Position numbers and translations under genes: made by a program. This document shows, piece by piece, positions 12,901 through 60,580 of a stretch of DNA of 64,000 nt; positions within the stretch are counted from its first letter, which is position 1, and each line of letters opens with the position of its first letter. Under the pieces are notes generated by a model, which was not told the DNA's origin, did no database searches, and worked only from the letters and a program-made list of their open reading frames with translations. The stretch covers positions 62,001 to 126,000 of the forward strand of contig JAAOMT010000630.1 of assembly GCA_016748015.1 (NCBI GenBank), in the 5' to 3' direction. The DNA is from Geosiphon pyriformis uo1 (Eukaryota; Fungi; Glomeromycota).

Positions 12901-13119
12901 TTTATATACAAAATTTTTTTAATAATATGTTAACTTATATAATAATTATTAAAAAAAAGTACTTTATAAAATTTTTAAATTTAATTAAAATTAGACAACT
13001 ATTTAATTTAATTTTTTTTTTATGCTATCTAGAACTATACAACATACAAATATTCTAAACTAGGTGCGAATCATGCATTTTCTATATGTGACCAGCCACT
13101 CAAGCCAATCAGAACAACA

Positions 13120-19604: not shown

Positions 19605-20164
19605 AACAGCAATAACAGAGCCAACAGTGGCCTCGTAATCGAAAAATGGTTTTGATTTGTCATACTGAATGGTAAAAAATTTCTTTCGAAAAAAACTATA
19701 GACTCTTTTTTGGGAATTTTTTGGACAAAAAAGAAAAAGTTACTAAACTGAGTAACAATGTTATTACTCCACAAAAGAGAAAAAAAAATACTATTTAATA
19801 AGATAAAAATAATTTAGTTAACTATTATTTATAATAACAAAAAACTAAAAAATAATAATAATAGTAAGTTATCTTATAAAATAGTTTAAAAAAATTATTT
19901 AAAAAGCAAATGCAAAATTTATAACAGATTTTATTTATAAAATATTATTTGTAAATAATTGTATTTTTATTTACATAAAAAACTATATTTTATAAACAAC
20001 TTAATACAAAAATATTAGATTGTGTTTAGGTCTTACTTATTAAATAAAAATACAAAAAATCTGCAAATATTTTTATTTTATTATCTATAATAATATAAAC
20101 TAATAAAACAGTTTAATATAAATTATTAACCAAAATTTCAACTAATTTTAAACTAAACTAAAAT

Positions 20165-21422
20165 ATTTTTATTTTATTTTATTTAATGAGTGAAGTCTAA
20201 ACACTACTTAATACAATACATCAACTAAGTGATCTAAACTAGACATGAATTATGCATTTTCCATATATAACCAGTCATTCAAGCTAATCAAAACAACACT
20301 ATACATCTATACAAACTGAAATCACATTATCTAAACCAGAAAAAAACTGACAAGAATCACAAAAACCAAAACCAACACCAATAGCATTAGCAATACCCAA
20401 CAATTTAACTACACTAGCAGAAAACACTAAAAAAAGCCCAGACACTGAAATCAAAACAGACCCATCATGCATAATTAGTCTATTTTTCTCCATAAATGTC
20501 TAGTGTTTGATATGAGCCAACCAAATCTTCTCTCTGAATACAAAGTCAAATCTGTGCACAAATTCCACAACTGTTTAACCTGCAATTTTAGAATCTTTAA
20601 AAATAGAAAAGAACTCTTGATACCAATTATTAAAGACAAAACCCTTGCACAAAGCCACACACATAGCAACATTAGAAGAACAGGAACTCAAATATTGTAA
20701 TACACACAAGACTGAACAAGACAGACTAGAAATCACCTCTCATTCAGCTGCATAGGTATTCAGCAACTAAGCACAAACATCAAAATCAAACAAACAGAAA
20801 AAAGTGTGGTCTAAAATCTTAATATTCTCACAGAACAAACATACTACACTTAGATAACTTTTGGCATACAAATGTTTACAAACAGCAACAGAAAGTTGGT
20901 AATGCAAAGTCTTCATAAAATAAGTGCAAGTGCTAACAATACTCATATTAATAAAGCCAAAGACCAAATGTGAATTAGGATGCCATACCAAGGATGACCT
21001 AAACCAATCAATATCAGCATGCAAAATATCTACCACAACTTGAAAACCAAAGCCAACTTCTCAGTGTGTTCAATAGACAGACTAAAATATATCATAAACA
21101 AAATATCTAGAATTAGCAGAAATGATGCCACCATTAGTCCTAATATAACACTCTGCAATATGATAAGAAAAATACTAATTAGAAAAGCAAGCAGTCTTCA
21201 CAAAAGTATCAGCACATTTATTGCCCAAGACACTTGAATAACTCTTAACTTTATGCCAACTGACCTCTAAACTCTTCTTATAAATAACACCCATAATATG
21301 ATAATGCTCAATCCAATATTGATTCCAGAAGTTAGGACACAACAAGCCCAACTTTGACTTACAAGCATTCAAAGCAAACTGACTGTCTGAGAAAATTTGA
21401 ACTGAACTAAAAGAAAAGAGGC
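20165..21422 (-). mobile_element. LINE 2, 3' portion (end of RNase H, CCHC, 3' UTR and A-rich tail), cut by LTR element A
   Basis: Homologous to 13010-14240 (WHKVKSYSSVLGNKCAD, CLFCENIKILDHTFFC, same 3' UTR). It ends abruptly at the TGTTAC at 21423. Confidence 0.85.
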
Positions 21423-22410: not shown

Positions 22411-23394
22411 TGTTACTGGAGGTTTTTGGTCTCTTTTCTGTAATGTTGTTGATACTTATTTGCTGTGAATTCACATTTTCTGGATGTGGTTGAACCTCCA
22501 ATAACTGAATTTTTAACTTCAAATTATCTCCTATAATTTGAACTTGCTGGGCTTATGAGTGGAATGGCCAATTCCGTGCCAGTTGCTTTGTGTAGTTACG
22601 TTGTAGTAAACGTCAACTCTTTCCCAGAAATTGCTTGTCTGGAAGCTCACTAAAAATATGTAGTTACTTTGCTGTGAAAGTCAACTCTTCTACAGGAATC
22701 TTGTCTGTAGGTTACCCTAATGATTATGATAAGAAAATAAAAGAAAATAAAAGAAATGTAAAAGAAATAGAATTTTATCAAGAGAAACATTTTCTATTCA
22801 GGCATGGAGTCACTAACAGTTTACTGAAATTGGTAGCTAATCAATTTCAAAATATTAGTTGGGTTTTGGGGATTTTCCAAGTGCAATAATTAAAAAATTT
22901 GGTTTTTCAAATTATTTGATATTTATTTCTTTTTGTGTGTATAGGAATGGTTCTAAGTGATAAATCTAGAGTAAAATATTTTTTTCTCGAAGAAAGAAGC
23001 TCTTTTTTTATACAACTTGTCGTAACATTATTCTATGAACTTGAACTTTGCTATTTTCTACAATTTCGCTGAACTAAAGATACATTTCGGTGAACTACAA
23101 GTTATTTCTGCGAACTTATTAGATATTTTGATGAACTATCAATTATTTTGGCGAATTTCTATAAATTTCGGCAAACTTTTGAATATTACATAGTTTGGGG
23201 TATTGCATGATTGATCATTGCAATTAGGTTACATTTGTGTTGTGTACAATTTGGGTTATTAATTAAATGATAATTTCGGACATTTTTTGCTAATGTAATA
23301 AGTAATAATTTGAAATGATAATATATGCTAATTAATGATAGGAATTATAAGATAATTTCATGTTAAATGATATCTCTAATTTCGTCTGGTAACA
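22411..23394 (-). repeat. Element B 3' LTR
   Basis: Colinear with 31286-32269 and the same length. Differences in the part compared are transitions. Confidence 0.95.
23064..23178. repeat. About six imperfect 20-21 bp tandem units (core TTTCGGCGAACT) in the U3 part of the B LTR; also ~31939-32053
   Basis: tttcgctgaact / tttcggtgaact / tttctgcgaact / ttttgatgaact / ttttggcgaatt / tttcggcaaact at regular spacing. Confidence 0.75.
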
Positions 23395-24082
23395 TAACCT
23401 CCTCCTTAAGACTGAGCTCCGTTGAAGTCCAAGTACTGTCTGTTATTTCCAGATAATAATCCAAAATTATTGAAGAAATTTGGTCTGAAAATTGTTGAAA
23501 TTTCAGTTCTGTAAGCTTTCCAATGTATTGAATCTTCAAAGGTTGAAAAATTGGGTTTTGTAGTACGTTTTCACAGGTATGGAATAGGTCATAAAGTCTA
23601 AGAGCAGCTTTAAGCCTGTAGCGACTGTTTGTTGATCCAGCTGTTGTCTTGAATTCATTGTGGAGTTGTTTCTGAATAGCTTCTTTTGTGAGGTTTGCTG
23701 TTGTAAGTTCTAGTTTCTGTTCGTAGAGTGTTTTTCCAATGTGAAAATATCTATAGATTGGAAAATATTCAGTGTTTTTCTCATTGAGACACAGTTGAAG
23801 TTTTTGTTGAATTGTAGCATTTGGTGGAATACTAATCGGAGTGAGCATTAGGTTTTCTCTTAAAGCAAGCTTTAAAAGTTCTGGCAGGTGAATTCCAGTA
23901 TAACTTTTTGTGTTCTTTTTATACGGGTGATATTTTCGTGAATTTGGGGCTAAATTTGTAACTACTTCTGTTTGGGTATAATTAATGTGGTTTCTAGTAA
24001 CAGTAATGAATAATTCGGGTATTGTTTTTAAAGCTAACATTAGTTTTTGGAATAATTGTTGAATGTTTTAAGAAATAGTCAT
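23363..24082 (-). pseudogene. Element B ORF3, ~239 codons of unknown function, overlapping the PPT and 3' LTR
   Basis: ATG at 24082, one early TAA (probably CAA), then 225 aa open (24040-23363). Homologous remnants occur in A and D. Confidence 0.75.
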
Positions 24083-24198
24083 TATAAACAATTGAAAAAA
24101 AATAAAAATTATTTTTGGTGTATGGGTTTTTATGTTATTTTTGTTTTGTTTTTGTGAGATTGTTTCTAAATTATAAGAGAATAACTAGTAAAATTAAA

Positions 24199-25582
24199 TT
24201 AAGTGTTCAGGTTGGAAGGTTGTTCAATGACAACTATTGGTTCTAAGTTTCGGGGAATATCTTTAGGACTGACCAAAGGGAAATGTGTACCAATTTGTGG
24301 AATTAATGGTTCAAGATTGTTTCTGGAATGATAGTGTTTCAAACAATCTCCATGTACAACTTTTGCTAGGATTTTATCATCAAGTCTTAGCTTGTATGAT
24401 TTATTGTCTAGGACTTCATGGATAAAGAATGGTCCATCCCATTTATTTTCAAATTTTCCACTCCATTGTTTTTCAGCTTTAGTTCTGTGTAAAAGAACTT
24501 TGTTTCCAATTTTGAATTTATTAGTGACTGAAGGCAATTTGTCATCATGCTGTTCTTTTTGTTGAGCTTGGAAGTGTTCAATATGGGTGGCTGCTATTCG
24601 TCATTTTCCTTTCAATGTGCTAAGCAGAGTGTAGGCTCTTCGCTGAAGTATTTCTTGGAAATTGTTTTCATCAATCGGTTGTGCTGGGTATGTTTCCACT
24701 GTGAAACTGATTGGTAACGTTGCCATCCTTCCATAAGTTAAATCAAATGGTGTGTTTCATGGTATCTTGTTTTAATGTCCTATATGCTAGTAATACTGAT
24801 GGAATAAAGAGATCCCATTCTTGCTTAAAATTGGTTGAGACTTTGGTTAATGACTCACACAATGTTCTGTTAAAATGTTCCACAAGTCCGTTTGTTTGTG
24901 GATGGTAGGGCAAAGACAGAGGTCTTTTGACATTAAATTGTTCACAAATTTCTTGTATTAGGTTGTTCACAAAGTGTGTTCCCTGATCGGATAAAAGTTC
25001 AATTGGACATCCATATCTACAAATGATGTCTTCGTAGATGAAATTTGCTACTGATTTTGCATCTGCTCATTGAATGGCTCTGGCTTTAGGCCATTTAGTA
25101 AGATAGTCTACAGCTACTGTAATATAACAGTTTCCTTGAGTGGTGATAGATAGTGGTCTGACTAAATTAATACCAACTCTGTCAAAAGGCTGTCCAACTT
25201 TGATTGGATTTAAAGGTTCTATAGAGTAAGTTCCTTCTTTTTTTTGACAACTATCACAAGATTCGACATATTTGTGAATGTTTTTTCTCATTCGAGACCA
25301 AAAGTAGTATTTTAGTGTTCTTTGGGTGGTGCTATCTTTTCCAAAATGTGCTGATGAAGGATCCAAGTGCATGTTGTATAAAATGGTCTTTTTTTCTGGT
25401 TCTTGTATTAATCTAAGTGGTTTGGTTGGGTTTTTGAAATTTCAATAATAGATAATGTTGTTGTGTAGAAAATATTGTTTGGCTTGTTGTTGTAACTGAT
25501 GTTTTTTGTCTGGGAACCAATCTGTTGGGATTGTTAATGTCTCCAAATATTGTTTGAGATTGTTGTAGTTTTTGGAGTTCAT
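24199..25582 (-). pseudogene. Element B integrase (separate ORF, one small indel near 24750)
   Basis: MNSKNYNNLKQYL...HLDPSSAHFG...CDSCQ (HHCC), VDYLTKW, SDQGTHF, PYHPQTNGLVEHFN, WDGPF (GPY/F motif). No chromodomain. Confidence 0.9.
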
Positions 25583-25631
25583 TGTTTGTTGTTTTAATGC
25601 TGTTAATTCAAATGGGTGTTGGTTTTGTTTT

Positions 25632-28600
25632 CTAATTTTGCCTCATTCTTGAGAGACAATCAACATTGGTGTGGAGTTTTCCTGGTTTGTGGTGTACAAT
25701 GTATCAGTAATTAGCTAAAAATCCTGTCCATCGGGTTTGTTTTGGGTTCAGCTGGGTGTTTTTGTTTTGTAGCCATTTAAGTCCAATATTATCAGTAATA
25801 ATATCGAATTCTTTGGGTCTGAGGTAAAGATTGAAGTGATGTAGAGCCCAGATTACTGCTGTGGTTTCCAATTCTGTTGTGGGGTAGTTCTTTTCAGTTG
25901 GCTTTAATGTTCTACTAGCATAAGCAATTACTCGCTCATTTCCATTGTCATCTAACTGTGATAGGATGGCACCAAAGGCAGTATAAGAGGCGTCAGTTGC
26001 TAACTGGAATTGGTTGCTGAAATCTGAGTAGGCAAGGATTGGAGCTGTTGTGAGTTTTTCCTTAAATATCTCAAAGGCATTTTGGTGTTCTTTTGTCCAT
26101 TTGTATTCAACATTTTTAGTAGTGAGCTGGTTGAAGGGTTTTGCAATTTCTGAGAATCCTTTGATGAATTTTCAGTAATAGAATGCTAATCCAATAAATC
26201 CTCTTAATTCTGTGGTATTTTGTGGAGTCTTGAAGTTTTTGACAGTACTGATTTTTCTGGAGTCTGGTTTAATTTCATCTTTGCTAATAATGTGACCAAA
26301 AAAAGCTAAACTTGTTTTTCCAAAGTAGCATTTTTCAATGTTCAGTTTCAATTCTGCTTTCCATAATCGTTGAAAAACTTCTCGCAGGTGAATTAAATGT
26401 AGCTCGAAAGATGATGAATAAACATCAGTGTCATCAAGATAAATTACTACTGATTTCCAAAGGAGGCCTTTGTAAACAACATCCATGAGTCTTTGGAATG
26501 TTGCTGGTGCATTGCATAATCTGAAAGGCATTACATTGAACTCGTAATTTCCTCCTTGAGTGGTGAATGCTGTTTTGGGGCGGTCTTTGGAATCCATAGC
26601 AACTTGCCAGTATTCACTCTCTAAATCTAATGTTGAAAAGTATTTGGACTTTCCAAGGGCATCCAACATGTCATCAATTCGAGGAAGAGGGTAGGCATCC
26701 CCAATGGTGATACTGTTGAGTTGTTGGTAATCAACACAAAATTGTATCTTTCTATTTTTTTTTTTAACTAGAACCATAGGTGAGGCCCATGGGCTCATTA
26801 ATGGTTGAATAAGCCTATTGTTAAGCATCCATTGTACTTCTTTTCGGATAAATTGGTAACTTTCTGGAGCAACTCGATAGGCTTGTTGTCACCTGGGTTT
26901 GGCATCTCCTGTATAGATTTGGTGTTGAACCAAATCAGTTCTTCCTAAGTCATTGTTGTTTTCGGCGAAGATATCAGCAAATTCTGCAATTAGTTCTTTG
27001 AACTGGGTCTGTTGTTGTGGTTCAAGTTGTCCCATGTTGATTTGAGATAGTTTTTCCATGACAACATGGTAGTTTTCAGAGCTAGGGTTTGGGTTGATTT
27101 TTGGTAGTAAATGTCTAATAATTTTAGGAAAATCGGGGACTGTTTGGAGTAATTCTTGTTGAAATATATTACTGTGAATAACTCTAATTTCTAAATTATT
27201 TAATAAAATTATGGGGTAATTATTGGGATTGTAAAAAGTAACTTGGACTTTCTTTGTTCCTTCTGGAATATAAATGTTTGGGATTGAAATATTATGTTCC
27301 AAGCAGATTTGTTCATTGGACTCAAAAATTTGTTGTGTGGTTGTTGGCTTTGTGCAAATATAGATTTCCGGATGTTCTCCAAAGGGTGAGATAGTAATCG
27401 GTTGTGGAAGTTTGAGAATCTGGTGGGATTCATTCTGTGTATTAAGAGCTATATTAACTGGAACTGTGAATCGTCCAGTTGAACCAAAACCTTGGGTTCC
27501 TCTATTGCTTTTTCCTAATTGTTCTCTTTGATTGACTAGTTGTAAACCCGAAATGTTAATTAAAAGTAGGTAAATAGCTTGGGCAATTTTTTCAGCATGT
27601 TTGATCTTGAATGGTTTGTCAGTTTCATTTTGAAGCATCACTGTTATGTTTCCAGTATATTCAGCATCAATTATTCCTCCTCTGACATTGATTCCTTTGC
27701 TTGCCAGAGAGGACTAGGAGGCGATTTGAACCATTGCTCCTGGCAGAATTTTGAGTGCAATTTTGAGGTTGATTTTTGTAAGAGATTTGGGTTTGAGAAC
27801 AAGAGTATCCTTGCCTGGATATCTTAGGTCATATCCAGCATTAATTTCATGTGCTTTTTCGGGTTTTATTCTCTGTCCGTTGTTGTTGAAGTATTTAAGT
27901 TGTAAGGCAGGCTGATTTTCGATAAGATAGATGGGTGTTGTTTCAATTTCTTTCATTTCTTTAGGTTCTTCAAATTCAATTTCATTCTCATCATTTTTGC
28001 TGGGCAAGGGGATACTAAGAGCATAGCATTCAGGACACCACTGTTCATTGCAAGGCATAATGCATTCTTCACATAGCCTAATGTTCATTTGCTCTAATCA
28101 TTGAATTTGAGCTTCTTGGGTCGGGTAGGTGTAACTTGCAATTTGGTGATAGACTTCTACTTCATCTTCGTAATTGAATCCAGCTAATTCCATAGTGTAT
28201 TCAATGTATTCTGCTTTCTTCATTTGACAAACATCTTCTTTGGTAGCTCCATTAATTAATGCCATTGCTAAGTCGAAAATCATCTTGGCATCATAAGAGT
28301 AGTGATAAAGTTTGTTGAGAGCACTGTTGTATGCTGCATTAAAGGGTGTTCTTCTTTTTACTTTTTCTGAAATTGATAAAGCATATTGGCAGGTCTGATC
28401 GCAGACGCCTCCTCTTATTGCTACATCAATCCAATTGCATTCTTCTGGTAGCATATCTCCACAAGTTAAACAAGGAGTGTTGTCCCATTTTCTGCTTCTT
28501 TTTATTAGATGGCCCCATTGCTCTCTGTGGCAAGTCTTGCAGTAATAACAAGTATGATTCTCATATTCTTCTTCAGGTGAAATGCAGGCTCCCATTGACA

Positions 28601-31244
28601 ATAGTTTCTTGTGGCAGTCCTTACATTTAAGGGGAATATAGGGGCGTTGTTTCCTTGGTTCGGGTTTTGAGTAAAGTATATTCCATCCAGAGGTTTCGGG
28701 TTTAGTGTGTGGGGTAAAATGTTCTTGTTCTGTTTCATCAGCCCAGTTGGACGTTAATCCAAGAGCCATGAATGTTTCGATTATTGGTTTTTCTTCTTCT
28801 GGTTCAAATTCAAAAGCTGGGGCTTTTTCAGAGCATTTGTTGAATGTACCACAAATGGCAGGTATTCGGGCGTGTTGTCCTTGGTAGAAGATTGTTAACT
28901 CTTGTGTTTTCCAATTCAAATTAGCATTGGCTTTTTGAAGCCAATTATTTCCGACAAGAGCTTGGTACTGGGGTGTGTCCATTACAAGAACTTTGACTGG
29001 AATGGTGATTCCATCAAGAGTGAATAGAAAATTGTCAATTTCTCCTACTGGGGTCTTTTTCATGCCATCAGCAGTGACAATTACTGTTTGAGCTGGTCGG
29101 TCAACCTTTCTTTTTAACTGTTGCATTAATTGGTAGATAATAATGCTTCCAGCGGATCTACTGTCTAAGATCAAGTGAATTGGCTTTCCTTCTACTTCAG
29201 TTTCTGTGTACATTGCAGTGATGGCTTTTTGCTCATTAGCTGCTGCATTGCTAAGCAAGAATGGTGATTCATTTGCTTCAAATTCAAAAGGAAAGATATT
29301 AGAGAGATTGGCATTTTCAGCAATTCGGACTGGTGGAATAGTAGTGTGGTTATGAGAAGGGTTTCGTTGTTGTTGTACTGCAGCTCTACCTTCCGAGAGT
29401 GCAGTATGGTGAAAATCCTGTTCTTCTGACATTGTTAAATAACTGGATTGAGTGTGGTAATGGTTGGGTCTTGGTTGAGTGGTATTTTGGGGAACTAATT
29501 GGTTGTTCGAACTAATTCTACTGTTGTTTACTTGGTATTGGTTTTGTGGTGTGAATTGATTTTGTGTAATCAGTCTTCAAGCAGATACTTGATAATATTG
29601 TGTGGGTAGTTGTTAATATTGCTGTTGGATTAGTTGTGAGGCGGGCTGATAATAGTTATTTTGGTATTGGGGTCTTGGTGAATAGTAAGCTGGTGGTAAT
29701 GGTTGATAATAAGATTGTTGTGGTGGAGAGTAACGTTGATTACCTCTATTTTATTGGTCTTGTTGCAGCTTTCTGCAATCTCTTTTCCAGTAGCCAGAGA
29801 TTCCACAGTAATAGCAATTCTGGGGCTGGTTATTGGAAAGTGGTACAAAGTTATTTTGATTTCGTATTTGGGGTGGTTGATATCTTTGGGGTTGTTGTTG
29901 TTGTTGGTTGGTAAAATAGTTTTCGACCTTCTTTGTAAGTTGGTCAATTTTTTCCTCAGCTGCTGAGCTGGTTTCTCCAATTGTCAAATTTACAAGTTTT
30001 GTACAATTGACTTCTTCCATGGCCATTTCGTATCTTTTTGCATGCTGTATGGCAGAGTTTAAATCTTCTGGCGTGTGTGGGCGAACCTTTTTAATTAGTT
30101 TATCTTTTAGACCAGCAATAAATTGATCCAAGATTTGAGCATCGGAATAATAATTGTTTGTCTCAAGTTGGCGAATCCGTTTGAGAAGTTTGTTGAATTT
30201 CCCAATATAAGTCATAACGGATTCGGAGAGTTCTTGTTTGATATTTCGAAAACAATTGTAAAGAGTAATGAAGATATTATTGTCGGTAAACTATTCAAGG
30301 AAGGCTGCTTTGAAAGCATTCCAATCATTGAATGAGACAGCAAGGTTTTCAAACCATTCTCCTGCTGTTTCTTTAAAAAAATAGGGAATTGTTCTTAACA
30401 TTCTGGCAGTGTTCTATCCATTTGCATCTCCAGTTTTAGTAACTTGGTCGAGCCATTCTTGGGGACTGGTCTCAATATCTTCTCCATTGAATTCAGGGAT
30501 TTTTGCGATGTATGTTGTCATTTTGTCTTCTTCGTTTTCACTGTCTATTGATTCTTCTTTGGTTATTTCAGAGTTGTTTTCTTCATTTGCTGCTGTCTCA
30601 GAGTGTTCACTTTGATTTTCAGCTAGAAAATCAAGGAGATTGGAACTAGTTTGAAGGGGTTCTTGTTGTCTGGATTGACTTCTGAGTAATGTAAAATCTT
30701 CTGGTCTTGCAAATTGATTCAAGGGTGAATTAGGTGTTTGTGCTTGTACAAGTAAAGCTGAAAAAGGTGTGATAGTAAGTAGAAGTTTTGAGCTGGTTCT
30801 TTGTTCAGGTGTTTGTAAATGTTTGAATGATATTTTGGAAGTATTGGGTGTTGTGTGAACAGGCCGGTTATCTTTTTGTCTTTTGTTGCTACTGGTTTCA
30901 GGTTCAGATTCGAGTTCAAAAGCAAATTGTGCGTTTGTAGGATATCTTTCTTTGCAGAATCGAATGATATTATAATCAAGTTCCTCAAAATAAGTAGCAC
31001 AAGCTTCAGCACTAATGTTCTCTGATTCAGTGTTGGAATAGTGTAGTATGTTCTCAAGAAGATCTCTTTTAACTGTTGTAATGTTATAGTTCCCAAAGAG
31101 GTAGTCATTGATTCGATTTTCGATGTATTGAAAAAGTGTTTTCTTGAAAGCTATGATTCCATTGCGTATTTCAAATCGTTGTTTGCAGTGTGTATAAATT
31201 AATTGATAGTACTCTAAGGTTGTGATGTTTGAGGTAGTCACCAC
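25632..31244 (-). pseudogene. Element B Gag-Pol polyprotein, single frame of ~1870 codons with nonsense mutations
   Basis: Fragments starting at 31244, 30215, 29432, 28088, 27641 and 26828 are all co-frame. Motifs: capsid KIPEFNGED, CYYCGISGYWKRDC, LILDSRSAGS, dUTPase motifs, YPLPRIDD, IYLDDT, ATDASYT and NVDCLSRMRQN*. Confidence 0.92.
27475..27860 (-). other. dut: dUTPase domain within element B Pol (homologues: A ~35995-36380, D ~59115-59500, E ~51839-52019 partial)
   Basis: All five trimeric-dUTPase motifs in order: AGYDL, S*SS (RSS), GIIDAEYTG, KIAQ, RGTQGFGSTG. Confidence 0.92.
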
Positions 31245-31285
31245 TTTGAATTTGTTGCTGTGTTATTTCTGTGGAAAGCACCAAA

Positions 31286-32269
31286 TGTTACCAGAGGTTT
31301 TTGGTCTCTTTTCTGTAATATTGTTGATACTTATTTGCTGTGAATTCACATTTTCTGGATGTGGTTGAACCTTCAGTAACTGAATTTTTAACTTCAAATT
31401 ATCTCTTATAATTTGAACTTGCTGAGCTTATGAGTGGAATGGCTAATTCTGTGCCAGTTGCTTTGTGTAGTTACATTGTAGTAAATGTCAACTCTTTCCC
31501 AGGAATTGCTCATCTGGAAGCTCACTAAAAATGTGTAGTTACTTTGCTGTGAAAGTCAACTCTTCTACAGGAATCTCGTCTGTAGGTTACCTTAATGATT
31601 ATGATAAGAAAATAAAAGAAAATAAAAGAAATGTAAAAGAAATAGAATTTTATCAAGAGAAACGTTTTCTATCCAGGCCTGGAGTCACTAACAGTTTACT
31701 GAAATTGGTAGCTAATCAATTTCAAAATATTAGTTGGGTTTTGGGAATTTTTCAAGTGCAATAATTAAAGAATTTGGTTTTTCAAATTATTTGATATTTA
31801 TTTCTTTTTGTGTGTATAGGAATGGTTCTAAGTGATAAATCTAGAGTAAAATATTTTTTTCTCGAAGAGAGAAGCTCTTCTTTTATACAACTTGTCATAA
31901 CACTATTCTATGAACTTGAACTTTGCTATTTTCTACAATTTTGCTGAACTAAAGATACATTTCGGTGAACTACAAGTTATTTCTGTGAACTTATTAGATA
32001 TTTTGGTGAACTATCAATTATTTCGGTGAATTTCTATAAATTTTGGCAAACTTTTGAATGTTACATAGTTTGGGGTATTGCATGATTGATCATCGCAATT
32101 AGGTTACATTTGTGTTGTGTACAATTTGGATTATTAATTAAATAATAATTTCGGACATTTTTTGCTAATGTAATAAGTGATAATTTGAAATGATAATATA
32201 TGCTAATTAATGATAAGAATTATAAGATAGTTTTATGCTAAATGATATCTCTAATTTCATTTGGTAACA
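31286..32269 (-). repeat. Element B 5' LTR
   Basis: Followed on the minus strand by TT-TGGTGCTTTC (PBS). Confidence 0.95.
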
Positions 32270-32377: not shown

Positions 32378-35300
32378 GTGACAACTATTAAAACAGTAGG
32401 AAAAGACTACTCTCCATATAGAAAAGCATTATTTCAATACTTTTAAAAAGATCTAGGAATACCAGCAGAAACTGTTTATACAGAAAGTAATTTTTGTAAC
32501 TATATCAATGCAAAAATTGACTACTTATTAGACCATACAACCAATACAGGAAGACTTGAAGAACAAATCCATCAAAGCTTATTAGAGTACTCAACAGTCA
32601 TGACTACCTGAGCAATTACTGAAACTCTGCGCATAATTGATACAGATATTAAATATTACATGGCAAAATAATTCCCTCAAATACAACAACCAGTGGAATC
32701 TGACTCTGAGGAATATGAAAACAAATCTAACAACTTTACAACTGTCCAAGCCAAGTCCATGGTCAACAAAAAACCAAGATTCTTTTTCCCAACAACTCTA
32801 TCATATCATCAAACACTCCAAAGTAGAATTGTATTCAACTCATCTCCAGAAACCCAGTCGGAAACACTATGAACTCCTAAAAATCTACACTCCTGGGGTC
32901 AACACAATTGGACCAAATCATTAGGAAAATATGGATTATTGTTTGGAAATTTCATCCCAACAATTAATAAAACAGACAAAAATACATCAACATGAGAAAC
33001 ACTACCAACCCAACTCTTGACCAAATTATCAATTACTCTCTCTAAAAAAACAGCTATTCTCCAGCCCATTGAGATAATTAACAAAAGAAAACAACCAAAA
33101 TTAGCACCAGGAGAACACTCTAGCATGCAAACACCAAACTCCTCAGCATCAACCAATAAGACTCCATCTATTTACCAGATCATGGCTTACTGAGATATTG
33201 CCAAATTAAAAAAATTCTCTGGTGAAAAAGACAATGCATATACATAAATTGCAGAAGCCAAGAAAGCTATTACTGCCAACAATTAAGATGATAATAGGGC
33301 CATTCAAGCATTGTCATTTTTTTTGACTGAAATTGCAGACTCATGATATCAAAGCCTTACAGAAAAACCAACCAACTTTGCTGTCTTTAAACTTGTTTTT
33401 CTGCAATACTTTTGTGATCCTAATACTCTCATCAGATTACAAAATCAGTTTAGTATAATAAAACAAAAAGATCACGAAGCAGTAACCACTTATCTTGGAT
33501 GATTCAACCAAATCCTTCATTAAACCCAGGCCATTGAAAGGAACTACTACACTGTGGCACAAATCCTTAATCAATTTGTCAAAGGATTAAAGAGCAGCCT
33601 CCTCCGATCTGTAAGACTCTACCACCCAACAAACCTACAAGAAACAGTTACTTTTACTTATGCCTTTGAGTCAGCAGAACAAAAGGCTAACCATATTCAA
33701 GTTGTTAATCTGGCTATTAATGAAATATTCAATATTGACACAAAAATAACTCAATTAAGTAAAAAAATAACTCAATTAAGTAAAAAATTAACTCAAAAAA
33801 TTGAGGAATTTTTAGCTGATACTATAAGACTCTATCAGCCACCACAATAAAGAGATAGTAATAATAACAGATACCAATAACAACAGAATTGTCAGCAACA
33901 ACAACAATCTTGAAGATCCAATTTTCGCAATTATTACTATTGCCAAAAATCTGGACACATTGTCTAAAACTGCTATAAGAAAGTAATGGACCAAAATCAA
34001 GGAAATTAATATTAACAACTGAGATACTCTCAAAACATGGTATTCCAATACTTTGCACCTCAATATCAACTGCCTCAATACTCACAACAAATTCAGTATA
34101 CCTAGCAACCACCTCAGAACTATTACCAGTCATTACAGCCAATGGTTCAAACAGTATTCTAGTACCAAAACTCTGTTAATAATCAACCTAAACATTGTGT
34201 GATTGATTACAACCAAAGATAAAGAAACCCCAACAACAATCAGATGTCAACTAACAGTGTACCATTGCAATCTCTAAATTATAGTAATATCTCATCTTGA
34301 CCAGTACCAACTGGATATTCTAACCAAGTCTTATATTTTGGTTTCAATAAAAACCAGGATTTTTATAGCTTTACATCTTTAGAAAGAAAAAATGTAGGAG
34401 AGACTCCCAACCTTTTAAGAGAAAATTGAACCAACAATACTATCCCATCTACTATTATCACTGAAGATATTACCTTTGCTGTTATTTTTCCTTTCAACAT
34501 TGATGGTCTGAACACAAATAGCCTTTTTAGTGGAGCTGTCATAAATCAGGACAAACCAATCACAGCTCTGTACACTGATGCTAAAGTTGAAAACATAGAC
34601 ATTAAATTAATTCTCAATAGTGGATCAGCAAGCAGTATAATAATAAAACAACTTATGAATCAATTAGGTTACCAAATAGATCATGCTGCAACTGTCTGAA
34701 TAATTACTACAGATAACAATACCAAAATCCCAATCAGAGAAATCAATAATTTCCCCTTTGAAATCAATAGAATCCAAATTTCTACAAAAGTCCTGGTCAT
34801 GGAAGCCACACAATATTAAGCTCTTGTCAGAAATAACTGGCTGGCCAAAATCCATGCCACTTTTGACTAAAACACACAGAAATTACAAATTATCTTTAAT
34901 GGATGACATGCCTGAGTTCTAGCTACATGTAAACACTTTAAAGTCCAAAGCTTGAAGGAACCACTAATTGAATTCGAAGACACCACACCACTATCAACTA
35001 TAGAAATCTATCAAGTTTCATGAGTAGACAATTTCCGAACAGAGTTACCCTTACCGCCAACTTGGGAAGAAAAGGAAAAGGGAAAAACAGAAAAAAAACT
35101 ACAATCAGCATCTACAGACTATTCTGCCCCAAGTCAAGGAAGTCAATAGTATCAAATCTTGAAATTAATTTGTGTCGACTGTGGAAAAAAGTTATCTTCT
35201 ATAGGTGCATGTATTGGAGATGATGAGAAATGGCCAACTACCACCAAATATTACTGCAGACTTTGTATGTTGAAAAAATTTGGCAGACCAAAATAACAAG

Positions 35301-38201
35301 ACAAATGGGACAATATATCATGTTTTGCCTGTGATAAGATTCTGCCAGATGAAGAACTATGGAATAATGTTCTCAGCTGAGGAGAAATATGCAATGAAGC
35401 ATGTTAATACACAATCTTGATCAATAATTGAGTACAAAAAGGAACTCCAATTGACAACACTTGGAAACAAGTGTTATGATAATTAGACAGGTATTTCCAT
35501 GATGAACACAAGATTTGGAGAATGATGAGTGCAAAAGCAGAAGGCACTACAACCAGAAAATTACTGGAAATTAAAAACAACTTTTTATTCCTTCCAAAAC
35601 CCAAATATATCATAACTTTTGATGTTTTTGGCAACATTAAAGACAACCCAGAATATTTCTATAAGCACTATTAGAACCTGGCACTAACTAGAAAAAAGCA
35701 GAAACAAAAACTAGCTGACCTAAACATAAAACTGTGTGATCATTGTTTGATCTCTTGCCACTTTCAGTATTGCAATGAATGCAATATTATGTTCAACCTG
35801 CTTCCAAGAAAACTATACCCAATCACCAAACTACTGAAATCTAAGGTAGAAGAGGAATTAATTACCAAGAACATGTCATTTCAAGATCCAACTGAAGATA
35901 CCAAAACAGAACAGTATCTTGTGTATCCTAATCTATCCAAAGAATTAGAATTAAAATGGTACAGTAACAATGAGGAAAAAATCTGTTCAGAAAGAGCACA
36001 TAATATTGATGCTGGTTTCAATCTATAATACTCTGGACAATCAATTATAGTTATAGCCCTATATTTCTTTGTAAAAATAGATCTTAAGATAGCATTAAAA
36101 ATTCCTGTTAGTACAATGTTACAAATTGCTTTTCGATCTAGTCTAGCCAAAAAAGAAATTGATGTAAAGAGAGGAATCATCAATGCTGGTTACATGAGAA
36201 ACATCATAGTAATGCTACAGAACAATTCGAACAAATCTTACAAAATAGAATTACAAAAAAAAATTGTCCAAGCTATTTTTCTACTTTTAGTCAAAATGCT
36301 CTAATTGACCCCAGTAACAACCCAAGAAGAATTAGGTCTCACTGTCTGAGAAATCAACAAGTTTAGATCAAGTGGAAGAGGAAATGTACCAATCAACTTC
36401 ATGGAGGAAAATAATAATCAGATAGAACTTATCTACACCAATACAGTCATTTTCATCCCCTCTTATTGACAATACATCCTCAAGATAAATCAAAAGATCT
36501 AAAAATCAAGCCCTGTTATTTGAAGCCAATCCTGAAATCTGTTTCTTAGCCAATGTTGCTAACTTATACCTACTGGCCAAAGCCCATAAACACTTTAAAA
36601 TCTCTATCCACAACCCCACAAAAGATGTAATTGAAATTCCCAAAGGGACTCTTATTGGTTCTATCTCACTGGACATTTAACATCTCAAAAAACCCCAGCC
36701 TATCCCAGATTTTGCACAATTGTTCTTATTTTGCAACATCACTTCACAAGTATAGAATCAGCCAAAAAAAAGTTACTTGTTTACACCAGAAGAAATCAGT
36801 AAATTGAATCTCAGAAACTTAAGTACTCTGCAGCAAATGCAACTCAAGGTTCTCTTGAATCAATATGCCAATGTTTTTGCCAGTGAAAATGAATTCAGAT
36901 GCACTGACATCATGAAACATCAGATTGATATGGAAGACACTTGACCTATTAAACAATGAGCTTATTAAGTACCCCAATTTGGCAACAATTTTATCAAACA
37001 AGAAGTCCAACAAATGCTTGACAATGGCTTAATCAAGAAATTGTTAAGCTCTTGGTCCTTTCCAGTAGTTCTGGTCACCAAGAAAAATGGAAAGATATGA
37101 TTTTGCATAATTACTGAAAATTAAATAGTGTCATCTGAGAAGATAGTTACCTCACTTCTCTCATCCAAGAAATCCTGGACAATCTAAGAAAAAAGAAATG
37201 GTTCTCATTATTAGACTTAGCCAGTAAATATTAGCAAGTCGAAATAGATTCCAAAGATAAAAAAAATGGCATTTACCACTTGAGATGGAAACTTTGGGTT
37301 TAATGTAATGCTTTTCAGACTCTGCAATGCTTCTGCCACATTTTAATGCCTTATAGATGTCATGTACAAAAGAATTCTTTGGAAATCAGTCATAGTTTAC
37401 TTAGACAACACAAATGTATTCTCTGAAACATTTGATAATTATCTGCTTTATCTTCAATAAGTCTTTGAATACCTTTAAAATGTTGGATTAAAACTCAATT
37501 CCAAGAAATGTTTCTTTGGAAAAACTGAGTTAAAATTCCTAGAACACGTGATTGGCAAAGACAAAGTTAAACCCAACCTAAACAAAGTCCAAAAAGTTAA
37601 AAATTTTCCAGTTCCAATTAACCTTCAAGAGTTATAAGAATTTTTAGAATTGGCAAGATACCACTGCCAATTTGTCAAAGGATTTTTAACTATAGCAAAA
37701 TCTCTTCACCACTTGTTGTCCAAATATGTGCCATACCTATAGAAAAAAGACCAACAGAAAGCATTCAACTATCTTAAACAGCAATTGATTACATCCTCAA
37801 TCTTAATTTACCCAAATTTCATTAAACAGTTCATTGTCGCTACAGACACCTTGAAAAATGCTCTAGGAACAGTCTTATTACAAATAGAACCAGACAATAG
37901 AGAACATTTAATTGCCTATACCAATTACAGCACTAGCCCAGCAGAAAAAAATTACAGCACAACAAATCTGGAATGTCTTGCCATTTATTGGGCCATACAG
38001 ACATGGAGACATTACCTCAGCTTGCTCTTTGATCTATATACTAATCATAAAGAACTTGTTTGGTTACTTAACAATCCACAACTGGAAGAAAAATATGTAA
38101 GATAAAGTACTTATCTGCAACAATTTCCACTCAAAGTCTATTACAAGAAAGAATTCAAGAACACCAATGCTGACAGTTTGTCGAAGATGTTACAAACCTA
38201 A
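32378..38201 (+). pseudogene. Element A Gag-Pol polyprotein remnant (N-extension, capsid, CCHC, protease, Cys-rich module, dUTPase, RT, RNase H)
   Basis: Motifs AKLKKFSGEKD, LILNSGSASS, CVDCGKKL, AHNIDAGFNL, IINAGY, VYLDNTNVF and NTNADSLSKM*. Many stops and some indels. Confidence 0.85.
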
Positions 38202-39582: not shown

Positions 39583-40424
39583 TATGCAGCAAATTAAATT
39601 AGGGAATTCAAATATATATAGCATCTGAAAAACAGCAAAAAACAATAGAACTTTTAATATGGACTTGTTAGATCAAATTCTACAACTCTTGAAACAACTA
39701 TTTGATGCAATTCAACAATCTTCTGCTCAAATAGAAATAACAATTGATAGAAAAAAAAATACACTATAAAGATAGGAGCAAGAAAGGAATGGACGCGAGT
39801 TTAACTAAAACTAACTGTTCCTATCTCTACACCCTATCCAAGAAAAAAATTTTATAAAAAGGAATTAAATCATCTCAGGTGGGGCTTGAAAAAAGAGTGG
39901 AGAAATGAGAAAAAGTTTATAAAAAAAGATACTTGGTTCCTGAGCTGGAAAAAATCAAAAAAGCTTTAGCTCATGGGATTGATCTCCCTTAAACAAAAGA
40001 ATAAACACTAAACAATGCAAAAAAATGAAAAGAAAGACTTTCTTCAGCTTATTGGTTCTACAAAATGGGTAAAAAATTAGACTTAAAGATGTCATATAAA
40101 GGCTTTAGCCAAAAAACTTTCAACAAAGAAGCAATGCAACAAGTAGAAAAATTCATAAAAAGAAGCAACCTGACCTTATATTACAAAGCAACATATTGAC
40201 TATATGCTGCTTTCCAACTTTGTTCAAACATATTGTTGTATAGATCTATAAAGATGATAACAGTTAACAATATAGAACAAATTACCAATCAACAATTCGA
40301 AGACCTATGAAAAACAATATTTGACACAACCATCAAACATTATATAAACAAAGACATAGAAACAGATACATACAATTTCACAGAAGCTCAATTCTAAAAA
40401 AAGAGGGATAATATTACCTGAGTA
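39583..40424 (+). pseudogene. Element A ORF3 remnant
   Basis: ATY*LYAAFQLCSNILLYRSIKMITVNNIEQITNQQFEDL is homologous to ORF3 of B. The start position is uncertain. Confidence 0.6.
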
Positions 40425-50374: not shown

Positions 50375-50566
50375 TTTTTCATCCGTGGTTATAACTCTTA
50401 ATGGATTATCTGGATTTTGTCGATTCCGGTAATAAAGTATGTGATTTTGGATGAAATAGTGTTTTGCTAATTTTTGGAGCTTAATTAGCTCTTTTACTGG
50501 CATTTCTTCGTCTATTTGTAGTGTTTCCAAGTATTGGCTGAGGTTTTTGTAAAGGTGGTTGTTCAT
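50375..50566 (-). pseudogene. Element E integrase, N-terminal start only (separate ORF, cut by gap)
   Basis: MNNHLYKNLSQYLETL...AKHYFIQNHILYYRNRQNPDNPLRVI matches the start of the B integrase ORF. Confidence 0.8.
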
Positions 50567-50595
50567 TGTTGTTGTGGTGGGTGGGTTGGTGATTT

Positions 50596-53500
50596 TTATG
50601 TGTGTCTCATTCTTGACAAACAGTCGGCATTAGCATTTTTGGTATTTTCTTTGTATTTGATAATATAATCGTATGGTGCTAACGTTTGTGACCATCTGGC
50701 GTATTTTTCTTTTAGCACTTTCTTGTTATTTAACCAGACCAGACCTCTATGATCTGTCATAATCTCAAAGGGTTGGTACTGTAAATATGTGTCAAAGTGA
50801 ACACAACTCCAGACTACTGCTAAGCATTCAAGTTCATGTGCTGTGTAGTTTTGTTCTGCCATACTGAGACTTCTGCTGGCATAAGCGATTACACGTTCTC
50901 TTCCATTATCATCTTTTTGTGACAGAATGGCTCCAAGTCCAGTTCCAGAGGCATCTGTGGCCAAAATGAATTTCTTGTTGAAATTCGGATAGATCATTAT
51001 TGGTGATTCAATGAGCTTTTGTCTAAGGTACTCAAAAGCTTTTTGTTGTGCTTCAGTCCATTCAAACTTCACATTTTTAGATAGTAGGTAATTAAGGGGT
51101 TTGGCGATGTTTGAAAAGTTTTCTACAAAGTGGCAGTAGTAAGATGTGAGTCCTAAAAAGCTTCTAACTTCTGAGACATTTCGAGGTACTGGAAAATTTT
51201 TCACTTTGTCTATTTTTGATGGATCTGGTTTTATTCCATCTTTTCCAACTACATGTCCTAAAAATGCTAGCTTATTTTTCCCAAAGAAACATTTTTCTAG
51301 ATTTAGTTTAAGTCCAGCGTGTCTCAATTTCTCAAAAACTTGTTGTAAATGTTGGAGATGATCCATGAATTTTGACGAGAAAACATTTGTATCATCCAAG
51401 TAGACAACAACGGATTGCCACAGGATTCCGGAGTAAATTACGTCCATTAGTCTTTGGAATGTCGCGGGAGCGTTTGTTAATCTAAATGGCATTACATTGA
51501 ACTCATAATTGCCATTTTGTGTTGTGAATGCTGTTTTATGTCTGTCCTTTGGGTCCATTTCCACTTGCCAGTACCCACTNNNNNNNNNNNNNNNNNNNNT
51601 TTGCGATAGGAATTTTTATCCATTGAGCTTTATCAGCTGGAATAAAAAGGTTAGTAAGTCCTATGAGAAACTGTTGGCAAGTTTCTGGGTAGGGCTCAAA
51701 TATTAGGTCTTTTTTTTTAATTATCCTTTTTATTCTTATTTCTGATTTTCCATATGGTAGGAGTGTGATGGACCACTCATTTTTAATTACTTCGCTTTTT
51801 TCCTCTATTGTTTCAGCAAAATTCGCTTCAATTCCTTTTCCTGTCGATCCGAAACCAAAAGTTCCTCTCGTTGTTTGTGACAATTCCTCACGATTTTCTA
51901 CTGGCACGAATTTCCCAATTTTTACCAATGATAGGAAAATTGCTTGTGCAATCTTTTCCTTAGATTCAATGGTATAAGGCTTTTCTGAATTGTTCTGTAG
52001 CAAAACCATCAAATTTCAANNNNNNNNNNNNNNNNNNNNTTGTATCATCCAAGTAGACAACAACGGATTGCCACAGGATTCCGGAGTAAATTACGTCCAT
52101 TAGTCTTTGGAATGTCGCGGGAGCGTTTGTTAATCTAAATGGCATTACATTGAACTCATAATTGCCATTTTGTGTTGTGAATGCTGTTTTATGTCTGTCC
52201 TTTGGGTCCATTTCCACTTGCCAGTACCCACTGGTCAAGTCCAGTGTAGAAAACCATTTTGCTCCTCCAAAAACGTCGAAGATTTTGTCAATTAACAGTA
52301 TTGGGTATGAGTCTTTGGTTGTTTTGCTGTTTAGTTTGTGATAGTCGACGCAAAATCTAATTTTTCCGTTCTTTTTCCTTACTAAAACAACTGGTGAGAA
52401 CCATGAGCTCATTGATGATTGTATTATTCCTTTTTCCAACATGCTTTGGACTTCTTCTCTGATAAAATTATGCTCCATTGGTGGGACATGGTAAGCGCAT
52501 TGTTTTTCAGGTCTGGCGTCTCCAGTGGGGATTTGGTGTTGAACCAAGTTGGTTCTTCTAAATTCGCCATTTCTTGAAAATATATCAGAGTATTTTAAAA
52601 TTAATGCTTTTAATTGTCGCTGTTGGTCAGGATCCATTGTTCCAATGTTTAATTTGGCCAATTCTTCTGGCGTAAATNNNNNNNNNNNNNNNNNNNNATT
52701 ATTCCTAAGTGCCCATTGTCGAAGTATCGGATGTCGGTCACCTGTTCTAGGTCGGTATAGGCTACAAATTTTTCTGACTCGGGACTGTCAGGTGAGTCTT
52801 GTTGATGTATTGATTGATTTTGAGACTGCTGATTCTCAATTTCCATTTTTCTTTCCAAGTCCCTTTTGTCTTGACACTCTTCACAGCACTGACTTTGGCA
52901 CAGGATGAGACAGTTTTCGCAGAGGTAAGTGTTGATTTGGGCGAGGTATTGTTCTTGCTCTTGTCGAATGGGGCATAGTTGTTGGTAGTAGTCCTAGAAT
53001 TCGTCCACTGGGTCGAACATGTTGTAGCTGGCAACTTTGTTGGCTACTTCGGCTGACTCTTTCCAACGTCGTATTTCTTCAGCGGTTCCTTCTCTTACTT
53101 TGGCTTGTGTGATGTTGTACAACTCGTCCTCGTCGTGTGAGTAGTGCTGTAGTCTTTTTAACGCTCTGTTGAATGCTGCTTCGAACGGCGTTCCTCCTCT
53201 TACCCAGTCACAGATGAGGATCATGTATTGGCAAGTTGCGTCACACGTTCCTCCTCGGCCTGGTAAGTCATTCCAGTCGCACTCTCTTGGTAACAGTTCT
53301 CCACAAGCGAGGCACGGTTCCTCATCCCATTTTCCGTGTCTTTCTGGGTAACCGTATTTTTCTTTGTTACAACGGTTACAATAGTAATGGGTGGGGTTTT
53401 TTGGGTCTTTGTCCAGTGTGCTGCACGCAGTCATAGACAAGAGTTTCTTCTTGCAAACCGAGCATTCTAGCTTTGGTCTGCGTCACTGGTGGTTTCTTCG

Positions 53501-58077: not shown

Positions 58078-60580
58078 GTGTCATCCAAGTATACAATTAC
58101 TAATTTCCATAGCAGTTTAGTATAAACAATTTTCATCAGCTGTTAAAATGTGGCTAGAGCATTTATTAAGCCAAATGGCATAATCTTGAATTCGAAGTTC
58201 CCTTCTTATGTTGTAAAAGCCATCTTCTCTTTATCTTCTGGTTTCATGGCTATCTGCCAGTAACTATTGTCTAAGTCTAATATTAAAAACCATTTTTTTC
58301 CTTCAAAAGCATCGAACAATTCTTGGATTTTTGGAGTCAAATAGCTATCTCTTTTGGTTACTCTATTTAGTTTCCTGTAATCCACACAAAAGCAGATTTT
58401 CCCATTTTTTTTATAGACTTGTACCACTGGTGATGACCATGGGCTCATTGATAACTAAATTAGCTTATTGTCAAGCATCCAATTGATTTCTTGACAAATA
58501 ATCTCATGACTGGCTGGTAATACTTTATATACTCTTTGTTTAATTGGCATTGCATTTCCAGTCTTAATCTGGTGCTGAATTATGTCTGTTCTGTTAAATT
58601 TATTTTCACTGGCAAAGATGTCATTAAAGTTGTTGAGTAATATTTTGAGTTGCATCTGTTGAAGTGGGTCCAAGTTTCCTAAGTTCATTTGATCCAACTG
58701 TTCTGGCTGGAACAGATAATATTCTTCTCATCCATATATTGTTTGAAATATAATATCTACATATTTACACAGTTGTGGAAAATCTGAAATGGTGTTTGGC
58801 AATTGGTCTTTAATTTTGGTGGTTAGATATCCAATGATAGTTCCTTCTGATATCTTGATGACATTTCCCATGTTGTTGTAAATGGGAATTTTGATATGAC
58901 TGTAGTTTTTGGCTAATATGTATAGATTGACTAATCCAATCTCTTTTGATTCACAAAGTGTTGCTTCTGTCTCAAAAATCTGAACTTGATCTTTTACTTT
59001 TCTCTCTATAATTACCATGTACTGGTCATATGGTGGGATGAAAATTGGTTGACAGATAGAGATAATTTCTTCCTTGTTAATAACTTCTTTCTCTGCCATA
59101 TTAACTGGTACATTTATTCTACCTATTGATTCGAAACTCTGTATTCCTCTAGCTGTAATCCTTAATTCCTCCCTGTTTTCTATTGACACTAATTGAGCTA
59201 TTTTTACCAGAGGTAGGAATATTGCCTGTGCTATCTTTTCATTTGGCTCTATAATATAGGCCTTTTCAGAGTTATTCTGTAGTATTGCAATAATGTTTTT
59301 TACATATCCTGCATTATTATCCCTCCTCTAATGTTGATTCTTTTTTTTGCTAAACTATTTCTAGATGCCAGTTAAATTATTGTTGTTGCTTGGATTTTTA
59401 GTGCTATTTTAATATCAATACATGTGTGCAAATGTGGTTCCAATTTAATGGCATTCTTTCCTGGATATCTCAGATCAAATCCAGCATTAGCATTATGCAC
59501 ACATTCTGGCATAATACTTTTATCATTATTGGTAAATCATTTCAGCTCTTGTTTCTTGATAAGATCAGAAAGTGTGATGTATGTTTTGGGGTTTGTATCA
59601 GAATATGAATTGTTGCTATTTTTGTTGCCATTTTGAACAGGGCTAAAACTGTTATTTTTGTTGTTATCATTGTTAGAGTTTGAATTGGAGTTGAAATTTG
59701 ATTCTGATTCTGATGTGCAGCTCTTGATTGGTTTATCTTCCTCTGGAATCATGTAGATTATGCGTGGTGGTAGATTGTAAATAAGGTTACACTTATTACA
59801 ATATTAGAAGTCATATGGAATTAGGCAGTATTGACACAGTTGAGTGTTCAGCTGCTCTAAGCATTGCTCTTGTTCTTCTTGGGTGAGTGCTAATTCTTGG
59901 TAGTATTCATAGAATTGTTCTGAATCCAGTAGATTTATGACTGGTTCTGGGTCCCAGTCAAGTTCTATAGATTCTGGAAGATTATTTTTTATTATTCTGA
60001 TTTTCTCTGACATCACACCTTTGATTTTGGCAAGTGCTATTTGCCATATTTTGTCATTATTGTGTGGACAATTGTCCAGGTGTTTTACTGTTCTTTGTTA
60101 GATGGCTTCTATTGGTATTTATTTTCTAATTCAGTTACTTATTAGAATCATGTATTGACACAATTTATTACATGTTTCTCTTTGCCCAGAAATGTCATTC
60201 CACATTTTTTCATTTAGAAAAGTTTTTTCACAAGCCAAACATGATTTGTTATCCCATTTTCCAGCTCATTTTGGTCTTCCAAAGCATTTAATAATGCATG
60301 AACAGCAATAAAACTTAGTTGCTGTTTGGTATTCCTCATTGTTACCATAGTATGTGCCTATTGTCGACAATTTCTTGTCACAATCAATGCATATTAGCTT
60401 GAGTTAACAGTAATTGGTTTATGGTTGTGGTGCCAAATATGAAATATACATAGAGTTGGGGTCTTGTGTGTTTTTACTTTCCCTTTCTTTCCCTTTTCTC
60501 TTTTCTTCTTAGATCCAAATTGGTGGTAACTTGCTTTGATCATTGTTATTCCACAATAATTGATCAGTGTTTCAGATAAG

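Follow-up and report, generated by a model that had tools for sequence, protein, structure and literature searches.

A module of about 200 residues with 13 conserved cysteines, located in the Pol region of a family of Ty3/gypsy retrotransposons between the protease and the dUTPase, is a real, bounded domain that is conserved across five lineages. It was identified in a stretch of 64,000 nucleotides from the glomeromycotan fungus Geosiphon pyriformis uo1 (contig JAAOMT010000630.1, positions 62,001 to 126,000; hereafter, the window), in which four copies, denoted A, B, D and E, are carried by decayed elements. The module is predicted to hold three zinc ions, and the role that we tentatively favour, while regarding it as possible rather than probable, is that of a protein-binding anchor for the adjoining dUTPase.

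A cysteine-rich domain between protease and dUTPase

Element B carries a pair of long terminal repeats (LTRs) of 984 bp each, which are direct repeats with 95.5% identity (blastn), and the element ends in TGTTAC...GTAACA with a 4-bp repeat, GCAC, on both flanks. Between the LTRs, Pfam searches revealed the order gag, protease (PR), Cys module, dUTPase, reverse transcriptase (RT), RNase H and integrase (IN), all on the minus strand (Table 1). Thus, the LTR ends, the GCAC flanks and the set of Pfam domains together identify element B as a complete but decayed Ty3/gypsy element. Membership in this group (Metaviridae) was judged by paired TG..CA LTRs with a target-site duplication and by a dUTPase (PF00692) between PR and RT within the gag-PR-RT-RNase H-IN order, and B displays both. 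The plus-strand frames of the region 28020-28630 are crowded with stops, and the long minus-strand frame is broken by single stops; the minus strand of the module was absent from an earlier note made on this DNA from the sequence alone. The top protein matches of the B frame were G. pyriformis hypothetical proteins with 80-90% identity, and the best 120 of the 275 hits were all from G. pyriformis.

The earlier note had proposed a multi-Cys module of about 200 residues between protease and dUTPase, with the same Cys pattern in four copies. The module is indeed present, with Asp_protease_2 upstream and PF00692 downstream, and the pattern was found in B, A, E and D at coordinates that differ from those first given by at most about 10 bases. 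In the protein P0001, which consists of the module of copy B plus short flanks (28008-28640), the N-terminal part includes C6xxC9-KKL, YYC34xxC37, KWDxxxC57xxC60 and C80xxxC84-QY, whereas the C-terminal part includes a helical stretch (TPF..A...L..Y.HD) followed by LC190xxC193xxxC197xxxxC202xxC205. In copy D, the motif scan matched 60152-60391, with a decayed tail, CQYCLIPYDF*YCNKC, at 59789-59836. The neighbouring domains were recognized in other copies as well, namely, the protease of element E upstream of its module (53519-54337) and a dUTPase remnant in element D (58731-59327). In-frame stops inside the module break all four window copies.

Despite the pairwise identity of only 33-49% among copies A, B, D and E, the Cys spacing is kept, in agreement with the earlier note. 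In a five-way alignment of these copies with P0145, an uninterrupted environmental relative of 1064 residues that retains all 13 Cys, 12 of the 32 invariant columns are Cys; the thirteenth Cys column holds Cys in 4 of the 5 sequences and Tyr in the decayed copy D only. The KKL motif in the first finger is invariant as well. In an alignment of 44 sequences, the 13 columns concerned (C6, C9, C34, C37, C57, C60, C80, C84, C190, C193, C197, C202 and C205) hold Cys in 23 of 33 to 39 of 41 filled cells; C19, C31 and C68 of copy B lack such conservation. The comparison of B with P0145 yielded identities of 64% for the protease, 63% for the dUTPase and 65% for the N-terminal part of RT; 47% for the zinc part, 34% for the helical part and 58% for the Cys5 tail of the module; and 37% and 35% for the PR-module and module-dUTPase linkers, respectively. 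Thus, the zinc parts are held tighter than the linkers and looser than the enzymes.

These comparisons bear on the explanation that the module is a functionless passenger, that is, an inherited spacer, with the likeness among copies due to common descent only. All four window copies are dead and most carriers are decayed gene models of a single genome, as expected of a passenger. However, the lineages differ at 51-67% of positions, and yet 12 of the 32 invariant columns are Cys; conservation is higher in the zinc parts than in the two flanking linkers; and the uninterrupted P0145 keeps every Cys. We therefore consider this explanation extremely improbable. As for the decay itself, Cys replacements in the decayed Geosiphon copies are nearly all to Tyr (TGY to TAY, a G-to-A transition), which suggests that C-to-T/G-to-A changes prevailed in the decay, as would result from cytosine deamination or a process resembling repeat-induced point mutation.

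The order protease-module-dUTPase is essentially constant. The protease precedes the module in 95 of the 100 proteins with at least 230 upstream residues, and the dUTPase follows it in 54 of the 55 proteins in which the module end is complete and at least 200 residues lie downstream; all six exceptions are chimeric gene models of considerable length. A conserved acidic motif, FEFE..E..P.IET, is present in the linker that follows the protease, and about 35 residues separate the Cys5 tail from the dUTPase.

A profile built from copies B and E, used in an exhaustive HMMER search, retrieved 242 cluster representatives at E<=1e-3, of which 162 reach E<=1e-10 and 47 reach E<=1e-30. Exact-sequence look-up of 20 proteins identified 16 as G. 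pyriformis gene models and 3 (P0145, P0175 and P0191) as carriers from metagenomes in the European Nucleotide Archive; the twentieth, P0276, is a Logan protein without the module. Thus, as judged from the 19 carriers looked up and the best 150 of the 242 representatives, this is a lineage-restricted, unnamed domain known mainly from G. pyriformis; the 92 weaker representatives may include carriers from other named fungi. A word-index search with the P0145 module gave 5 hits among 74 candidates, namely, P0145 itself and four Geosiphon proteins. A scan of viral contigs found no relatives of the module, and the sole locus from a scan of Joint Genome Institute (JGI) metagenome contigs, L001, was a false positive, a bacterial multi-CxxCH cytochrome-like open reading frame (ORF). 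A striking LTR expansion has been described in Geosiphonaceae (PMC11952901).

Table 1. Cys module copies, predicted parts of the module and components of element B (positions in the window)
Feature	Positions	Strand	Basis
Cys module, copy B, first to last conserved Cys codon; 1 in-frame stop (TGA)	28026..28625	-	motif scan, translation
Predicted zinc site 1: C6, C9, C34, C37 (CxxC-x24-CxxC)	28530..28625	-	conservation, model, charge
Predicted zinc site 2: C57, C60, C80, C84 (KWDxxxCxxC-x19-CxxxCQY)	28389..28472	-	conservation, model
Acidic helical bundle (predicted), residues 87-185; in-frame TGA at 28098-28100	28086..28382	-	model, charge
C-terminal Cys5 cluster CxxCxxxCxxxxCxxC (C190-C205), predicted zinc site 3	28026..28073	-	motif scan, conservation
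Cys module, copy A; 7 in-frame stops	35171..35782	+	six-frame motif scan, translation
Cys module, copy E (protein P0002); 1 in-frame TAG	52874..53464	-	motif scan, translation
Cys module, copy D; 5 in-frame stops	59789..60391	-	motif scan, translation
Element B, complete but decayed Ty3/gypsy LTR retrotransposon	22411..32269	-	LTRs, target-site duplication, Pfam domain order
5' LTR of B	31286..32269	-	blastn of the two flanks
gag remnant of B	29754..30290	-	Ty3_capsid E 1.5e-5, Retrotrans_gag E 8.4e-5 (Pfam)
Aspartic protease core of B, residues 126-212 of ORF 28098-29576	28941..29201	-	Asp_protease_2 E 1.4e-6
dUTPase domain of B; in-frame stop at 27711-27713	27471..27899	-	PF00692 E 1.7e-15, C-terminal part
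Reverse transcriptase of B	26175..26888	-	RVT_1 E 6.2e-29
RNase H and integrase of B, several broken frames	24202..26171	-	RT_RNaseH_2, Integrase_H2C2, rve, SH3_Tf2-1
3' LTR of B (element orientation)	22411..23394	-	blastn of the two flanks

Predicted zinc sites and searches for relatives

AlphaFold2 modelling based on the 44-sequence alignment produced a model without metal, with a mean predicted local distance difference test score (pLDDT) of 73.1 and a predicted template modelling score of 0.51. The model contains a knuckle around C6/C9, a helix (35-42) starting at C34/C37, a hairpin (71-79), a second helix (82-95) starting at C80/C84, and further helices up to residue 171, with pLDDT of 79-96 over residues 81-150. 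In a treble clef, one pair of ligands comes from a zinc knuckle and the other from the first turn of a helix, a hairpin lying between knuckle and helix. The secondary structure of the metal-free model agrees with such a build at both C4 sites, with no significant structural match. Two C4 fingers of the knuckle-plus-helix (treble-clef-like) type are thus predicted, C6/C9/C34/C37 and C57/C60/C80/C84, the second of which would pack against an acidic helical bundle (four to five helices). The suggestion of the earlier note that there are about three zinc sites fits the 8 + 5 conserved Cys and the predicted knuckle-plus-helix geometry. Comparison of finger 1, finger 2 and the tail with each other by hhalign detected no signal of duplication (E 0.11-0.22).

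The module has no catalogued relatives in sequence or fold in the libraries searched. In Pfam at E<=10, P0001 matched only Cytochrome_C7 (E 3.3) and P0002 matched nothing. Among PDB sequences, a single-sequence search returned antibody light chains with E 0.043 and worse, which were taken as chance matches, and a profile of 31 sequences returned two rows, with E 0.54 and 0.89; in the ESM Atlas, the best score, 0.78, was below lead level. Foldseek comparison of the whole model with the PDB gave 116 rows, none at E<=0.001. The top rows, all non-significant, were the GATA3 double finger 4hc7_A (E 1.1) and the LIM chains 7d2t_B and 4jcj_B; LIM chains appeared only at E 2.9-6.3, and the GATA and LIM rows had probabilities of 0.11-0.18 and TM scores of 0.13-0.27. 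A model of the N-terminal domain gave 9 rows against the PDB, all with E>=5.6, and the comparison with BFVD gave none at E<=0.001 (best E 0.15). A strong hit to a domain already annotated at this position, which the earlier note had named as the outcome that would speak against the novelty of the module, was sought and not found in Pfam, and the literature searched contains no account of a Cys-rich domain located there.

Known zinc folds were also compared with the module by ligand spacing. Cross-braces of the RING and PHD type have a conserved His among their eight ligands, and just 1-3 residues lie between ligand pairs 2 and 3; the module has no conserved His column, 19 residues separate C37 from C57, and there is no such Pfam match at E<=10. 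The LIM signature is C-x2-C-x16-23-H-x2-C-x2-C-x2-C-x16-21-C-x2-(C/H/D), with fingers two residues apart, and that of GATA is C-x2-C-x17-18-C-x2-C followed by a basic tail. The spacings here are x24, x19 and x19 with CxxxC and no His ligand, which departs from LIM, and x24 and x19 plus CxxxC, with an acidic sequence from finger 2 onward, which departs from GATA; neither family produced a Pfam hit. Thus, the module resembles the GATA double finger and LIM in its predicted tandem knuckle-plus-helix sites, but the matches are far from significant and the spacings differ. A motif scan located the zf-CCHC knuckle (C-x2-C-x4-H-x4-C) solely in gag, in copies E and D, with none inside the module. Finally, an HNH or zinc-ribbon endonuclease was raised by BFVD rows (E>=0.15); HNH enzymes have a beta-beta-alpha-metal motif whose catalytic His and Asn lie between CxxC pairs, and no conserved His or Asn column lies between the Cys pairs of the module.

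Possible roles of the module

The earlier note had assigned the module a role related to nucleic acids, chromatin or ubiquitin. No search supports such a role, and the spacings of LIM, PHD, RING and GATA are not those of the module. A host-directed variant of this idea would be a chromatin, nuclear-import or ubiquitin domain (RING/PHD/LIM-like) that recruits a host factor for targeting or counter-defence. Tandem zinc fingers often bind proteins, and the weak, non-significant Foldseek rows include LIM, RING and PHD chains; nevertheless, the missing conserved His and the lack of RING, PHD or LIM Pfam matches noted above count against it, and the 19-residue spacing of ligand pairs 2-3 is incompatible with a cross-brace. 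In addition, the targeting domains of gypsy elements are usually located at the integrase C-terminus. Accordingly, we regard a host-directed reader or ligase as very unlikely.

The charge distribution is more informative on binding to nucleic acids. The module as a whole has a median net charge of -8 and a median isoelectric point (pI) of about 5.3. Finger 1 is the only basic part (median net charge +3, median pI 8.75), whereas finger 2 (-2, 4.7), the helical part (-6, 4.8) and the tail (-3, 4.3) are acidic. Such acidity argues against a nucleocapsid-like coating of nucleic acid and in favour of protein binding or a role as a scaffold.

The same data weigh on a related possibility, namely, that the module is a tether that binds the RNA or cDNA of the element and thereby brings the dUTPase to where reverse transcription takes place, in the manner of the nucleocapsid (NC) in betaretroviruses. 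Betaretroviruses (Mason-Pfizer monkey virus; mouse mammary tumour virus p30) are described as producing NC-dUTPase fusion proteins (PMC4531489), in which NC occupies the same position relative to the dUTPase as the module does, so that in both cases a zinc-binding segment, here a predicted one, is N-terminal to a retroelement dUTPase. The basic finger 1 with its invariant KKL and the DNA-binding GATA double fingers at the head of the non-significant Foldseek rows (E 1.1) point the same way. However, these structural matches are not significant, the module as a whole, and its helical part and tail in particular, are acidic, and it lacks the CCHC spacing, a CCHC knuckle being already present in Gag (copies E and D). 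Betaretroviral NC, a basic segment with CCHC knuckles, is located upstream of the protease, and its fusion to the dUTPase arises via frameshifting; the module, in contrast, is acidic, with C4/Cys5 sites, lies downstream of the protease and has no sequence likeness to NC. On balance, a nucleic-acid tether appears unlikely.

A third possibility places the module on the side of the protease, as a C-terminal extension of the mature enzyme or a scaffold for oligomerisation or cleavage timing, unrelated to the dUTPase. The near-constant protease upstream (95 of 100) and the conserved acidic motif in the post-protease linker are consistent with this, and so is P0276, where the dUTPase sits in the same position without the module. 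Set against it are the equally strict association with the dUTPase (54 of 55) and the location of the best-conserved small part, the Cys5 tail (58%), which adjoins the dUTPase rather than the protease. We consider a processing domain of this kind distinctly unlikely.

The anchor that we tentatively favour would operate as follows. The module would stay joined to the dUTPase after polyprotein processing and would hold it in the reverse-transcription particle through a protein of the element or of the host, with basic Gag/NC, RT or IN as candidate partners; anchoring would not involve coating of nucleic acid. This role is inferred by analogy with zinc motifs joined to dUTPases of other retroelements.

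Relatives without the module are relevant here. With the P0145 dUTPase as query, 25 of the 679 candidate proteins proved to be hits, namely, P0145, 22 Geosiphon proteins, P0276 and P0287, and of the 22 proteins P0266 to P0287, 17 have a detectable module. Three Geosiphon dUTPase proteins scored as module-less; on inspection, P0269 and P0283 contain frame-shifted or deleted remnants of the module, and in P0284 the dUTPase starts from residue 72, which leaves no room for it. In P0287, the dUTPase is placed after the integrase. P0276, the dUTPase of which is 52% identical to that of P0145, has about 25 residues from the end of the protease to the dUTPase. In a quick dUTPase tree, P0276 stands beside one Geosiphon clade (SH-aLRT, the Shimodaira-Hasegawa-like approximate likelihood ratio test, 93), but on a long branch; the module may have been gained in the carriers or lost in the P0276 lineage. 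P0276 also contains C-P-H-x9-C-x2-C at residues ~290-310, after its dUTPase.

Several points weigh against the anchor. P0276 joins PR to the dUTPase with the module absent, so the dUTPase does not need it, and no significant sequence or structure match backs any function for the module. The module probably binds zinc, judging from the Cys spacing and a metal-free model of medium confidence, in which pLDDT of the tail is below 50; the N-terminal 95 residues folded alone reach a pLDDT of only 59. Furthermore, the module could belong to the mature protease product instead, and the basic finger 1 with the invariant KKL may make some contact with nucleic acid.

The surrounding window and other retroelements

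The remainder of the window includes both host genes and further elements. Beside the transposon cluster lie, on the plus strand, a gene of the Hid1/Dymeclin family with several exons (5384-8033; Hid1 E 3.6e-36) and a gene for a KH-domain protein (8785-10283; KH_1 E 1.2e-33). A different retroelement occupies 13025-20423 on the minus strand, with RVT_1 (E 4.7e-6) and, after it, an RNase_H of the cellular type (PF00075, E 1.8e-11); direct repeats of 220 nt with 77% identity (13025-13244 and 20204-20423) enclose this element, which is devoid of the Cys module. The region 40000-48000, between transposon copies, is very AT-rich (GC 21-27%), with almost no long ORF. Element E contains, within 50140-57571, seven runs of 20 N (at 50355, 51580, 52020, 52678, 56232, 56948 and 57337), which are flanked by duplicated blocks of 190-300 nt with 99-100% identity (families D1, D2, D4, D5 and D6). 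The N runs and duplicated blocks look like a scaffolding or gap-filling artefact, because of which the gag CCHC knuckle of E appears twice (54524-54565 and 57163-57204).

In element B, a segment of some 100-160 residues located between dUTPase and RT (27000-27470, minus strand; P0145 residues 751-850) shows about 33% conservation with P0145 and is missing from P0276. It faintly resembles a dUTPase beta-strand motif (FMQNTTDKPIIL vs MLQNETNKSYTI; hhalign E 0.096, probability 0.6%) and may be a degenerate second dUTPase-like barrel, although this is not established.

Known systems close to this one include fungal Ty3/gypsy elements with a dUTPase, namely, PosPlaTy3-5 of Postia placenta and elements of Phanerochaete chrysosporium and Tuber melanosporum (PMC2864245). 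These are likewise LTR elements with a dUTPase between protease and RT, and in the Postia placenta elements the position of the dUTPase is described as variable and its role as unclear (PMC2864245). Unlike these elements as described there, those of Geosiphon have about 200 extra residues with 13 conserved Cys between protease and dUTPase. Rotifer Juno elements have the dUTPase between PR and RT and an extra Zn knuckle after the dUTPase (PMC5408684). Thus, in bdelloid Juno, too, a zinc motif adjoins the dUTPase inside Pol (PMC5408684); however, the Juno motif is a single small post-dUTPase knuckle, whereas the module is a three-part domain of about 200 residues before the dUTPase, and no homology was found between the described Juno knuckle and the module. 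Enrichment of dUTPases with retroviral domains is reported for Entomophthora muscae (bioRxiv 10.1101/2023.09.13.557621), and a term search of PMC3248453 for zinc, cysteine and dUTP found none. The comparison drawn in the earlier note with a Cys-rich region of badnaviruses refers to a region upstream of the protease.

A more far-reaching version of the anchor, which strikes us as decidedly improbable, would be a new three-zinc fold by which the retroelements in an early arbuscular-mycorrhizal lineage dock their dUTPase onto a host or element protein, as an instance of a general rule whereby retroelement dUTPases work only when tethered by a zinc module. If true, this rule would link the betaretroviral NC-dUTPase and the rotifer Juno knuckle.

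The general understanding of LTR retrotransposons is unchanged by these findings, which concern a lineage-restricted accessory domain in a known type of element. For G. pyriformis, the module family now inflates the set of 'hypothetical proteins' in the genome annotation, and the module provides a clean marker for one dUTPase-bearing gypsy clade that has expanded in this genome. With about 200 residues, 13 conserved Cys and at least 242 cluster representatives outside Pfam, the module is a candidate for a new domain family. The scattered zinc motifs found beside retroelement dUTPases gain a large example with it, which makes testable how these dUTPases stay in the replication complex.

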